A stretch of DNA of 17,615 bases from contig JAEDOA010000017.1 in the NCBI GenBank assembly GCA_016302195.1, positions 1-17,615 on the forward strand. Reading direction: 5' to 3'. Source of the DNA: Erysipelotrichaceae bacterium (GTDB lineage Bacteria > Bacillota_I > Bacilli_A > Erysipelotrichales > Erysipelotrichaceae). The notes below the pieces were generated by a model, which searched no databases, was not told where the DNA came from, and saw only the letters and a program-made list of their open reading frames with translations. This document shows positions 3,950 to 4,787 of this stretch, in pieces. Position 1 is the stretch's first letter, and the number at the start of each line of letters is the position of its first letter. The translations under genes and the position numbers were made by a program.

Positions 3950-3978
3950 TTGATTTTTTCAAAAAATTATGATATAAT
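3950..3978 (+). promoter_or_regulatory. conserved phage promoter, copy 3, an orphan with no downstream + strand ORF
   Basis: TTGATT-TTTTCAAAAAATTATGA-TATAAT. The predicted transcript runs through a GC-rich box (TGCGGCGACCGCG) and the 4002-4023 hairpin into the 3' end of the convergent minus-strand gene. Confidence 0.55.
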
Positions 3979-4001
3979 ATTGCGGCGACCGCGTCTAATG
4001 T

Positions 4002-4023
4002 AACCTCAGACTAGTCTGAGGTT
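4002..4023. terminator. perfect 22-bp palindrome/hairpin (AACCTCAGACTAGTCTGAGGTT) at a convergent junction
   Basis: Perfect inverted repeat. It overlaps the last 3 codons and the stop of the minus-strand CDS 4011-4787. It is not followed by a strong T-run on the + strand. Confidence 0.5.
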
Positions 4024-4787
4024 ACTTCAACGGGCTTCCGCACTATAAATGAACTTGTTTCAAGTAATAAATCTTCAAGACATATTTTACTTAAATGAGT
4101 ATATGGTATTCTAATAATTGGGATATTGTTATCAAAACACCATTGATTTTTTATTCTATCATGTTCTTGTGTTTTATTGACTGGTTTCCAATTACTTGAA
4201 CTACTGATTTTATAGTGTTGTTCACCATCAAATTCAATTATATATTTATTATTAACATAAAAATCAAATTCAGCTTCTTTATTTGTATCTGGAAATATAC
4301 ACTTTGCATTTTTATATAAATATTGAAATTGAATACCAGCTTGATTTAATAAATTCATAATAATTGCTTCACCTGTTGATGCGGTTCGTTTATTTTTACA
4401 TTCATTACAATCAATTCTACGATTTGTTGTTAATGCGGTTAATTCAATAATATCAGTATTGCCGCAATCGCATTGGCATAACCAATTATAAGAATTTTGA
4501 CCTTTAGGTCTATCTAATCGTTTGATTGCTGTTAAATGTCCAAATTTTTGATTTGTAATATCTTTAGGAGCATTTCCTTTGGCAAAATGATTACCTTGCA
4601 TTATTTCTTTTTTAAGGCAACCACAAGATTTAACTCTACCGCCCCTTAATGCATCACTAGCAACTTCTACGATATTTCCACAATCACACTGACATTTCCA
4701 TACAATTTTACGATTTTTTCGTTTTTCAGTTTGTTCAATTACTGTTAAGCGATTATATTTATCACCTAATAAATTTAAAGCACTCAT
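4011..4787 (-). CDS. putative homing-endonuclease-like protein with two tandem Cys-rich zinc-ribbon repeats and a C-terminal Vsr/DUF559-like PD-(D/E)xK nuclease domain
   Basis: RBS AAGGAG 7 nt upstream of the ATG. It has two repeats 'W.C.CDCGN...(~15)...SCGC/CNEC'. The C-terminus 'FDFYVNNKYIIEFDGEQHYK...NNIPIIRIPYT' has the (D...E.DG.QH.K) arrangement typical of Vsr-like endonuclease folds. It is a paralog of 7407-8135. Confidence 0.6.
   Translation of the reverse strand: MSALNLLGDKYNRLTVIEQTEKRKNRKIVWKCQCDCGNIVEVASDALRGGRVKSCGCLKKEIMQGNHFAKGNAPKDITNQKFGHLTAIKRLDRPKGQNSYNWLCQCDCGNTDIIELTALTTNRRIDCNECKNKRTASTGEAIIMNLLNQAGIQFQYLYKNAKCIFPDTNKEAEFDFYVNNKYIIEFDGEQHYKISSSSNWKPVNKTQEHDRIKNQWCFDNNIPIIRIPYTHLSKICLEDLLLETSSFIVRKPVEVTSD

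Follow-up and report, generated by a model that had tools for sequence, protein, structure and literature searches.

We found that positions 3950–4030 of the window, the 17,615-nt stretch of DNA analysed here, are probably (at roughly 70%) a junction produced by gene-cassette turnover in a ~140-kb gut phage, at which a promoter was orphaned by a homing-endonuclease cassette. To the left lies a normal member of the phage’s repeated promoter family, which transcribes a small lipoprotein gene in sister phages. To the right, that gene’s place is taken by a free-standing endonuclease cassette, predicted to be of the homing type and lying on the minus strand (~3982–4862; Table 1), whose 3′ end abuts the promoter. 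The junction is a case of ordinary phage genome mosaicism and not a new regulatory RNA.

Table 1. Coordinates of the features around the junction and of the comparison sites within the window.
Feature	Position	Strand	Description
p53	3785–3946	+	Conserved 53-aa gene immediately upstream of the 3950 promoter; anchor for comparing relatives
Promoter copy	3950–3978	+	−35 TTGATT 3950–3955, 17-nt spacer, TG 3970–3971, −10 TATAAT 3973–3978
Element E (E1 copy)	3982–4042	−	61-nt three-tier stem-loop, 3′ end of the nuclease cassette
Apical hairpin of E	4000–4025		Perfect 26-nt palindrome, GTAACCTCAGACT then AGTCTGAGGTTAC; 11-bp stem, CTAG loop
endo1	4011–4787	−	Nuclease of 258 aa; Zn-ribbon repeats plus PD-(D/E)XK-like domain; tail RKPVEVTSD and stop inside E (4011–4040)
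Inserted cassette body	4043–4862	−	Nuclease ORF, ribosome-binding site CTCCT 4795–4799, inverted repeat 4802–4809/4822–4829
MVP-like gene promoter and 5′ UTR	4867–4943	+	Right flank of the nuclease cassette; gene at 4950–7376
endo2 cassette hairpin	7395–7422		endo2 stop codon (7407–7409) in its loop; comparison case
Second TGCGGCGACCG copy	8774–8784	+	In gene Y (8601–8825); codons Ala-Ala-Thr and the first base of Asp
Empty site for paralogous nuclease and E2 cassette	10311–10312		Window reads TAA-AA-TTATATGG

The sequence at 3950–3978 is an orphan copy of the phage’s repeated sigma-A-type promoter (TTGATT, 17 nt, TGaTATAAT). Repeats of this family, 30–55 nt long, occur seven times in the window (at 301, 803, 3950, 4867, 8368, 9011, and 10658), and the copies at 301, 803, and 10658 have a hairpin directly upstream. 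Each of the six other copies is followed, 33–55 nt on, by an ATG-initiated ORF (at 373, 866, 4950, 8435, 9072, and 10736). The original observation that the copy at 3950 has no plus-strand ORF behind it was correct: no credible ORF was found on the plus strand between this copy and 4950, where the next one begins. A terminator scan of the plus strand from 3980 to 4950 also returned no terminator. Only 3 nt separate the −10 box from a stem-loop, termed E. The gene in front of the promoter served as the anchor for comparison; in the collection, 669 indexed blocks contain the exact p53 protein, and p53 was followed by a 3950-type promoter in all 10 of the 10 places read. In L171 and L184, both hexamers and the 17-nt spacing are kept, while the spacer sequence differs.

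The gene usually found behind this promoter was evident from sister phages from metagenomes (L174–L181; L008, L171–L173, and L183–L185 denote further relatives). Window positions 3758–3981 are 93–94% identical to L174–L181, and homology stops at 3981. In the sister phages the order is p53, promoter, 5′ UTR, ribosome-binding site, lipoprotein gene, and MVP promoter, with a lipoprotein of 91 aa in L174, L175, L177, L178, and L181 and of 138/139 aa in L176 and L179/L180. The nuclease-free junction of the L174 type reads ...AAGTAGTTAA directly followed by TTGATT. In the window, the lipoprotein gene is missing from the slot behind the 3950 promoter and the nuclease cassette is present instead, a replacement that would have orphaned the promoter. 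Orphaning by endonuclease insertion had been one of the options first proposed, and the lipoprotein gene behind the equivalent promoter in sister phages bears it out.

Presence and absence of such cassettes among syntenic relatives, with clean boundaries, was observed at two loci: the MVP locus (present in the window, L171, and L184 vs absent in L174, L176, L179, and L008) and an RNA-ligase locus (occupied in L008 vs empty in the window). The stretch 4043–4862, whose right boundary is uncertain by ~5 nt, is missing from L008, L176, and L179, where E precedes the MVP promoter by 6–12 nt. The right flank, 4867–4943, is 96% identical to L008:9818–9893. Where the window and L008 share blocks, these end at promoters and stem-loops, and in L008 the MVP gene itself is missing between its promoter and a terminator. 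Beyond these phages, megablast, blastn, and tblastn searches of the INPHARED phage collection were all without a match, protein and pattern scans of IMG/VR returned chance GC-rich matches only, and one GTDB genome scan for the palindrome came back empty.

The nuclease ORF, endo1, is located between p53 and the MVP-like gene. It matched PHROG families 374 and 559 (“HNH endonuclease”, E value 6e-36), 9084 (“homing endonuclease”), and 7140, and showed a weak match to Pfam DUF2726 (18.6 bits, cut-off 24.7); a PDB sequence search returned no match. The motif FDF...EFDGEQH was invariant in the alignment of nuclease homologues (A2). The last ten codons of endo1 span 4014–4043 and encode a tail, R[KE]PV.[VI]TSD, shared with 4 of the top 120 homologues (P0050, P0074, P0075, and P0168). 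Three of these (P0074, P0075, and P0168) are ~50% identical to endo1 yet carry the common tail. Other homologues stop ~9 residues sooner, at ...FIV(K) or ...YRVV.

The 3′ end of this gene is part of E. A perfect hairpin had been noted here, and it proved longer than reported, a 26-nt palindrome folding at −16.7 kcal/mol (z = −5.5); the GC box noted earlier is the 3′ strand of the basal stems of E. The transcript predicted from the promoter would run antisense to the nuclease 3′ end, as first described, but the hairpin does not simply lie outside the gene: the palindrome is centred on the nuclease stop codon (CTA, 4011–4013). As a whole, E forms 23 pairs and contains the last ten codons of the nuclease in its 5′ half, with the stop codon in the apical loop. 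Read in the nuclease sense it folds at −35.1 kcal/mol (z = −7.0), compared with −29.5 kcal/mol in the antisense. A covariance model of E recovered a diverged copy, E2, in L008 (E value 6e-9). A weak match to the model in L032 (26.5 bits) was dismissed as lying within a coding region.

We compared six distinct versions of E1 and two of E2. Fold z-scores across the copies ranged from −5 to −8, and the nuclease-sense fold was favoured in 4 of the 5 copies folded on both strands (e.g., −32.7 vs −26.2 kcal/mol). The exception was the E2 copy in L176, which folded better in the antisense (−35.8 vs −31.6 kcal/mol). Conserved G-U pairs also favour the nuclease-sense strand in the other four. Across E1 and E2, five of the 11 apical pairs show compensatory double changes, a signal contributed only by the E2 copies, of which there are two, and by a single pair in L184. 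Within E1 alone, covariation was not significant relative to shuffles (278/500 and 128/500), and its lean to the nuclease sense (94.2% vs 90.5% of cells paired) was likewise not significant. All 11 apical pairs are Watson-Crick in each of the three nuclease-attached E1 copies, and stand-alone E1 copies have one to four non-Watson-Crick pairs. From these substitutions, the stand-alone copies appear to be decaying, with the copies on a close endo1 homologue perfect.

No U-tract lies immediately 3′ of E on either strand (flanks: nuclease sense, AAUAUUAUAU; antisense, CUAUAAAUGAAC), and E was not among the calls of the terminator scan. It is therefore not a canonical intrinsic terminator, and a plus-strand transcript would continue through it. 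Rfam searches yielded nothing at gathering thresholds across the whole window and noise only at E values up to 10 across 3900–4120, and a tRNA/tmRNA search of the window found none. We infer that E would function as RNA, on the nuclease-sense strand, by forming the hairpin at the 3′ end of the nuclease mRNA, where it may attenuate transcription, block 3′ exonucleases, or both, and so insulate neighbouring genes. A stop codon within a hairpin loop, also seen in the endo2 cassette, is not general for the nuclease family (22% of 60 IMG/VR homologues vs 29% of control ORFs), and E was present at none of those 60 homologue loci. In relatives without endo2 the MVP terminator is a different one, and its 5′ arm has been replaced in the window.

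The distribution of E ties it to the nuclease. The nuclease ORF continues into E and terminates in its loop in the window, L171–L173, L184, and L185, and the orientation of E is always that of the nuclease, on either strand. E occurs without a promoter in front in L008, L176, L179, and L185 and at a second locus. Its end falls at the identical nucleotide (...GCCGC) in four unrelated flanking contexts at the two loci. The second locus follows the RNA ligase and is found in three states. It is empty and without E in the window, where nothing resembling E was found at 10311/10312. It is occupied in L008, where E2 forms the 3′ end of a plus-strand nuclease paralogue and shares its orientation; the tail of this nuclease (RESAEATFD) is homologous to the E1 tail, and its stop codon again lies in the loop. 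In L176, E2 is preceded by 16 nt identical to the last codons of the nuclease, with no ORF, which marks it as a deletion scar. After E2, both L008 and L176 read ...CGCCGCA-TTATATGG. The empty, occupied, and scar states suggest that E arrives with the cassette and that stand-alone copies can be scars, an order of gain and loss in which the support for deletion is confined to E2, the sole trace for E1 being a 5-nt remnant (GTTAT) in L008.

The stand-alone E1 copies could be read in another way, with E as a pre-existing intergenic stem-loop or terminator before the MVP promoter, beside which the nuclease inserted so that its ORF ran into E. In L176 and L179, E1 starts at the last base of the stop codon of a plus-strand gene, and in L008 it starts 15 nt past such a stop. 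All three copies are nuclease-free and sit 6–12 nt before a promoter, the normal terminator slot, where they could be functional. The earlier stops of the other nuclease homologues also fit this history. We nevertheless consider it rather unlikely and demoted it because of the states of the second locus: the empty allele has no E, and the L176 scar keeps nuclease coding sequence attached to E2. The orientation rule, the homology of the E1 and E2 tail peptides, and the degraded stems of the stand-alone copies likewise argue against it and for arrival with the cassette.

With E assigned to the nuclease, the promoter requires its own account. A transcript from 3950 would start in the basal stem of E and run antisense through the nuclease into the MVP-like gene, as a by-product rather than the product of a dedicated RNA gene; such incidental read-through may occur. 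The suggestion that promoter and hairpin together form a gene for a small structured or antisense RNA was not upheld, as E occurs without the promoter, holds the nuclease stop, and lacks a U-tract. Set against what is expected of a small-RNA gene, the locus has a promoter, no terminator, a hairpin that is found without a promoter in five other contexts, and no Rfam match.

The promoter might instead have been retained, in line with the main idea first put forward, because an antisense transcript, or convergent transcription, holds down a potentially toxic nuclease. The window, L171, and L184 all preserve its −35 and −10 boxes, TG motif, and 17-nt spacing despite spacer divergence, the lack of a plus-strand terminator means that an antisense RNA would cover the whole nuclease gene, and a T4 review reports antisense arrangements and transcripts around free-standing nuclease genes (PMC2988022). 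However, these three phages share one recent junction (91–97% identical), so that retention of the promoter in them is not independent evidence. In L185, an equivalent E–nuclease unit has only a −10-like remnant upstream, with no −35 box, indicating that the cassette does not need the promoter, and the E2 cassette of L008 is co-directional with its neighbours. Given also that the predicted start falls in the basal stem of E and that the hairpin is explained without a promoter, we regard selection for antisense control as unlikely.

The shared end point of E raised a further alternative, namely that E is a cis-acting mobility site, either the nuclease’s own recognition or cleavage site or the hairpin end of a transposon-like unit. 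Such a role would account for the same terminal nucleotide in four unrelated flanks at two loci, for a GC-rich element unique within 30% GC DNA that also exists in stand-alone copies, and for the substitutions in the palindrome of nuclease-free copies, as expected of resistant target alleles. Yet the empty site at 10311/10312 shows that E is not required in the target, and a precise boundary is expected anyway, E being the edge of conserved, selected sequence. We find this role quite unlikely overall. Its most specific form, in which nuclease and E make up a discrete mobile unit whose own Zn-ribbon/PD-(D/E)XK nuclease uses the GC-clamped terminal hairpin as a cis-acting site, is very doubtful; if it held, hairpin-guided insertion or cleavage, and not ordinary homology-driven homing with subsequent decay, would explain the same-nucleotide junctions and the stand-alone copies.

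The 11-mer at the edge of E had also been proposed as a possible mark of an endonuclease target or homing-site remnant. As first noted, TGCGGCGACCG is repeated exactly, at 3981–3991 and 8774–8784, and none of 200 shuffles produced such a pair. The continuation reported with it (“loosely similar”, ~35 bp) did not exceed chance: the local alignment ends at the 11-mer, its score of 22 was reached in 32 of 44 controls (17.6-kb chunks of related phage DNA), and of the 20 bases that follow the common 9-mer core, 9 agree, vs 4–8 of 20 at unrelated occurrences of the core. The second copy is in frame in gene Y, which encodes a conserved 74-aa protein, and forms part of the conserved motif YP[AE]AT[GD][ST]I[VI]TGL. 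The 11-mer belongs to one allele; others use GAAGCTACTGG and similar codons. L171/L183 have E and the nuclease and a gene Y without the 11-mer, and L176 has a gene Y with the 11-mer and no endonuclease ORF in the region read. The repeat is thus a coding word that tracks with neither E nor the nuclease, the very outcome named in advance as counting against a target or homing remnant. That the site at 8774 is homologous to E, as a relic of the cassette end or a target for it, is therefore highly improbable, even though this exact GC-rich 11-mer has just two sites in the window, and a search of 804 kb of related DNA gave no third copy other than at the sites homologous to E and gene Y; in the same DNA the 9-mer core occurs at ~10 independent other sites, mostly coding. 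We also tried 3979–4013 as a pseudogene remnant of the gene Y 3′ end (IAATASNVTSD vs PAATDSIVTGL) and rejected it because no similarity extends past the 11-mer and its place within E accounts for the whole segment. Truncated gene Y homologues of 45 and 56 aa were rejected as insertion-split genes on account of in-frame TAG codons.

The cassette resembles the free-standing homing endonucleases of T4-like phages (seg, mob) in being an intergenic nuclease ORF, present or absent among syntenic phages, with several paralogues per genome. When such nuclease genes insert in T4-like phages, nearby promoters are perturbed and antisense transcription can arise (PMC2988022). Unlike seg and mob, the nuclease here combines Zn-ribbon repeats with a PD-(D/E)XK-like domain (the weak DUF2726 match) and is neither GIY-YIG nor clearly HNH; homing is predicted. 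The known regulatory hairpins of T4 nuclease genes are at the 5′ end, over the ribosome-binding site or as internal terminators, whereas here a 61-nt stem-loop with the stop codon stands at the 3′ end. A repeated sigma-70-like promoter beside stem-loops at cassette boundaries also recalls the promoter-early stem-loop cassettes (PeSLs) of T4-type phages, in which genes are gained, lost, or replaced between relatives within boundaries set by the motifs, leaving promoters with nothing behind them (PMC2839356, PMC4122927). The MVP promoter of L008, left with nothing behind it, is a comparable case. This likeness is architectural only; the phage group and promoter sequence differ. The order is also reversed, with promoter before stem-loop because the gene between them is missing, and E belongs to the nuclease cassette rather than to a promoter module.

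As a GC-clamped hairpin at an ORF 3′ end kept by compensatory changes, E is similar to intrinsic terminators and 3′ stabilising stem-loops, and terminator hairpins at or just past the stop codon are common among the nuclease homologues. It differs from them in lacking a U-tract, in its three tiers and 23 pairs, which make it far larger than the other terminators of the window, and in enclosing ten codons and the stop. IS200/IS605 ends, REP/RAYT, and MITEs share with E a structured terminal element, attached to the nuclease or alone, in fixed orientation to the gene. Here, in contrast, there is no Y1/HUH transposase and no second end, and the second locus owes its stand-alone copy to a simple internal deletion, since 16 nt of the ORF are retained.

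The main value of this analysis is that an orphan promoter and an apparent structured RNA were resolved by means of empty, occupied, and scarred alleles from metagenomes. Were E the nuclease’s recognition site, it would represent a new mobility mechanism, which the present evidence does not require. The comparison defines a small subfamily of phage nuclease cassettes with a conserved 3′ stem-loop that holds the stop codon of the nuclease. Such 3′ stem-loops can outlive the nuclease gene as relics, which annotators may easily misread as small RNAs or terminators.

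The window is AT-rich phage DNA (~30% GC) with nearly all genes on the plus strand, and a gene starts 33-55 nt past every copy of its promoter family except the one at 3950. This copy matches the family and no credible plus-strand ORF was found between it and 4950, bearing out the original prediction of a promoter without a plus-strand gene. INPHARED yielded no match to the window, and IMG/VR none at first; we gathered about 100 related loci (L numbers) by looking up exact proteins and by scanning metagenomes with the 808-aa product of the MVP-like gene. These relatives, all metagenomic contigs, come from phages of the gut and rumen, about 140 kb in size. 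The gene order in L174, L175, L177, L178, and L181 is p53 (a 53-aa gene), promoter, 91-aa lipoprotein gene, promoter, and MVP; L176, L179, and L180 have the same order with a 138/139-aa lipoprotein gene. The window is 93-94% identical to relatives across 3758-3981, past the -10 box, where homology ends. Since homology runs through the -10 box and a lipoprotein gene lies behind the promoter in relatives, the 3950 promoter normally serves this small gene; judged by sequence comparison, it is an ordinary lipoprotein-gene promoter whose gene is missing from the window, as it is from L171-L173 and L184. We estimate a probability of about 70% that a nuclease cassette ending in a stem-loop, element E, took the place of the lipoprotein gene. 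A promoter orphaned by endonuclease insertion was among the options originally proposed, and the relatives support it: they keep the lipoprotein gene, and the window has the nuclease cassette in that slot.

Coordinates of the features discussed (window positions unless a related locus is named)
Feature	Position	Strand	Description
p53	3785-3946		53 aa, just upstream of the promoter; widespread in relatives
Promoter-like repeat copy	3950-3978	+	TTGATT, 17 nt, TGaTATAAT
Other copies of the 30-55-nt promoter family	301, 803, 4867, 8368, 9011, 10658		
Element E	3982-4042		61 nt; GC box and palindrome as one unit
Second minus-strand cassette	7385-8355	minus	endo2 (7407-8135) and small HTH gene (8128-8310)
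endo2 cassette hairpin	7395-7422		bidirectional; endo2 stop codon in loop
RNA-repair-like gene cluster	1828-2643, 9072-10310, 11026-11544, 13209-14459		Thg1-like, RNA ligase, AAA_33 kinase-like, PIN/PhoH
In-frame stop sites	L002:650-670, L004:315-325, L005:3300-3308 and ~3815, L032:3380-3700 (minus strand); window 8823-8831, 17341-17346		

If active, the orphan promoter would start transcription near 3985, within the basal stem of E. Since the terminator scan found none between the promoter and 4950, such a transcript would cross the nuclease gene antisense and then enter the MVP-like gene. That this antisense transcription has a selected regulatory role is improbable: the genomes keeping the promoter represent one recent common junction, and the nuclease cassette also exists without the promoter. 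L185 has the identical TATAATAT|E junction without the -35 box.

In L008, a relative of 141 kb, the promoter of MVP and its 5' UTR match window 4867-4943 at 96% identity and run straight into a terminator (L008:9818-9925); the MVP gene is missing at that position, making this a second orphan promoter, the product of cassette loss. Downstream of the nuclease cassette in L185 (minus strand, 445-90), three promoter-family copies stand in tandem, followed by ~150 nt of higher GC in which no ORF is obvious; a non-coding RNA could be encoded there.

The GC box TGCGGCGACCGCG, part of element E, lies 3 nt past the -10 box of the 3950 promoter. The predicted hairpin is present and longer than described, a perfect 26-nt palindrome at 4000-4025 (-16.7 kcal/mol, z = -5.5), at whose exact centre the minus-strand nuclease ORF (4011-4787) ends. 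The whole element is built in three tiers: GCGG/CCGC pairing at the base, a middle stem, and an apical hairpin of 11 bp. Its fold energy is -35.1 kcal/mol (z = -7.0) for the minus strand, against -29.5 for the plus strand. Six distinct versions occur at the MVP locus (E1 copies), either joined to the nuclease ORF (the window, L171-L173, L184, and L185) or stand-alone (L008, L176, and L179/L180); in L176 and L179, E can follow the 139-aa gene. In joined copies the ORF enters E, whose 5' half (nuclease sense) encodes the tail R[KE]PV[EDK][VI]TSD, and the TAG stop codon sits in the apical loop. Four proteins of the top 120 homologues have this tail: P0050, near-identical to the window nuclease, and P0074, P0075, and P0168, only ~50% identical. 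Between the window and L184, identity is 91% over 3773-4269 (p53, promoter, E, and 225 nt at the 3' end of the nuclease gene), and 4270-4754, the N-terminal two-thirds with the Zn-ribbon repeat region, is unalignable; this looks like exchange of a presumed DNA-binding module while the genomic site stayed fixed.

A search with a covariance model of these six versions turned up E2, a diverged copy lying between the gene for RNA ligase and the gene that follows it, and brought the sample to eight distinct versions at two loci. In L008, E2 forms the end of a plus-strand 298-aa nuclease paralogue, oriented relative to that gene as E1 is to its own; the tail (RESAEATFD) is homologous, and a TAA stop codon lies in the apical loop. 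In L176, E2 has no nuclease and is directly preceded by ATTGAAGATTTGTTAT, an exact match to the final 16 nt that the L008 nuclease has ahead of E2; on this match, it is a deletion scar. The window site is empty: the ligase stop codon is followed by AA and then TTATATGG..., the sequence found after E2 in L008 and L176. Our first reading of the stand-alone copies, that E is older than the nuclease, became unlikely once these occupied, scar, and empty states emerged. They indicate that E enters as part of the nuclease cassette and is not required in the target, and that stand-alone copies can be leftovers of ORF deletion. The same locus speaks against E being a pre-existing element of the terminator slot, which is unlikely, and against a cis-acting mobility or recognition site, which is more doubtful still. 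For stand-alone E1 copies, scar origin is inferred by analogy, because L008 retains just a 5-nt possible remnant (GTTAT).

The structure of E appears to be maintained alongside the nuclease. E1 alone offers one compensatory pair (G-C to A-U, L184), and its covariation measures were not above shuffled controls. With E1 and E2 together, 5 of the 11 apical pairs changed on both sides with pairing kept, and the three-tier architecture persists despite different apical sequences (GTAACCTCAGA versus GCAACATTTGA or GCAACATCGGA). Apical pairs are Watson-Crick at 11/11 positions in the three nuclease-joined E1 copies; in the stand-alone E1 copies, 1, 2, and 4 pairs depart from Watson-Crick pairing, which fits relaxed selection after nuclease loss. 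The nuclease-sense RNA is favoured, with G-U pairs conserved in the lower stems, more paired cells (94.2% vs 90.5%), and lower sense/antisense fold energies (-35.1/-29.5, -28.4/-19.5, and -32.7/-26.2 kcal/mol), the L176 scar being an exception in energy. Because E has no U-tract on either side and receives no call in the terminator scan, we propose that it would act as a 3' mRNA hairpin of the nuclease, an attenuator or exonuclease barrier rather than a canonical terminator. Among 60 IMG/VR loci with homologous nuclease genes, E was found in none, and having the stop codon within a hairpin loop does not characterise the family (22% vs 29% of control ORFs); many have a simple terminator hairpin at or just past the stop codon.

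The GC-rich 11-mer TGCGGCGACCG does have exactly one further copy in the window, at 8774-8784, as predicted; its proposed role as a nuclease target or homing remnant is not supported. In gene Y (8601-8825; 49 homologues), it forms the Ala-Ala-Thr codons of the conserved motif YP[AE]AT[GD][ST]I[VI]TGL and belongs to an 'AAT' allele shared by the window, L008, and L176 (L004 with one mismatch); other alleles carry GAAGCTACTGG, GAAGCAACAGG, and similar. The word tracks neither E nor the nuclease: L171/L183 have both and a gene Y without it, and L176 has it in gene Y, yet the stretch read there contains no endonuclease ORF. Across 804 kb of related DNA, its 9-mer core, GCGGCGACC, turns up at ~10 other independent sites, most of them coding, one being a conserved position within the MVP gene. 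Aligned locally, E and the gene Y region share at best the 11-mer and nothing beyond it, with a score that 32/44 control chunks of related DNA equal or exceed. A word constrained by a conserved protein motif and without ties to the endonuclease is also the outcome that the original proposal had named as refuting it. From these comparisons, chance recurrence of a GC-rich word in coding sequence is the best reading.

Relatives also carry in-frame stop codons at conserved positions, the frame staying intact beyond them. In gene Y, Tyr57 is TAG in L002-L004 and Trp46 is TAG in L005-L007; an L005 lipoprotein gene has TGA in a Trp position, and an SLOG/DUF1273-like ORF in L032 reads past two TAG codons. 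Of the four window genes that end in TAG, two share their frame with the gene that follows (Y and p61; 16753-17343 and its neighbour). Suppression of amber codons, or recoding of stop codons, in this group of phages may account for these patterns.

The second nuclease, endo2, is 41% identical to the first, and its cassette displaced the 5' arm of the terminator that MVP usually has (GGGCGAGAGCAAAATCTCGCCC in L183, L176, and L174), whose remainder, ...CCCTTTATTTTTTT, lies at about 8350-8368. The adjacent MVP-like gene (4950-7376) encodes a major-vault-protein shoulder/SPFH domain (Pfam MVP_shoulder, E = 8e-19), with 52-75% identity in 66 of the 75 metagenome-scan loci and 34-41% in the other nine; it occurs on contigs reaching about 143 kb, in every case with a promoter of its own. 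Nuclease insertion sites are scattered among the RNA-repair-like genes (Thg1-like and RNA-ligase assigned by direct Pfam family matches, kinase-like and PIN/PhoH by homology to L008), and L008 has two GIY-YIG nuclease genes in this cluster that are missing from the window.

The overall architecture of the nuclease locus resembles that of free-standing homing endonuclease genes of T4-like phages, which are intergenic and can displace promoters and create antisense arrangements (PMC2988022), and also recalls the promoter/stem-loop cassette shuffling of PeSL (PMC2839356, PMC4122927). Unlike in those cases, the window nuclease combines Zn-ribbon repeats with a PD-(D/E)XK-like domain (a weak match), the 3' stem-loop is unusually large and holds ten codons plus the stop codon, and stem-loops of this type persist as stand-alone relics. 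A slight chance remains that E is something beyond a 3' hairpin; the finding is otherwise largely explained, and such an arrangement is ordinary among mosaic phage genomes.
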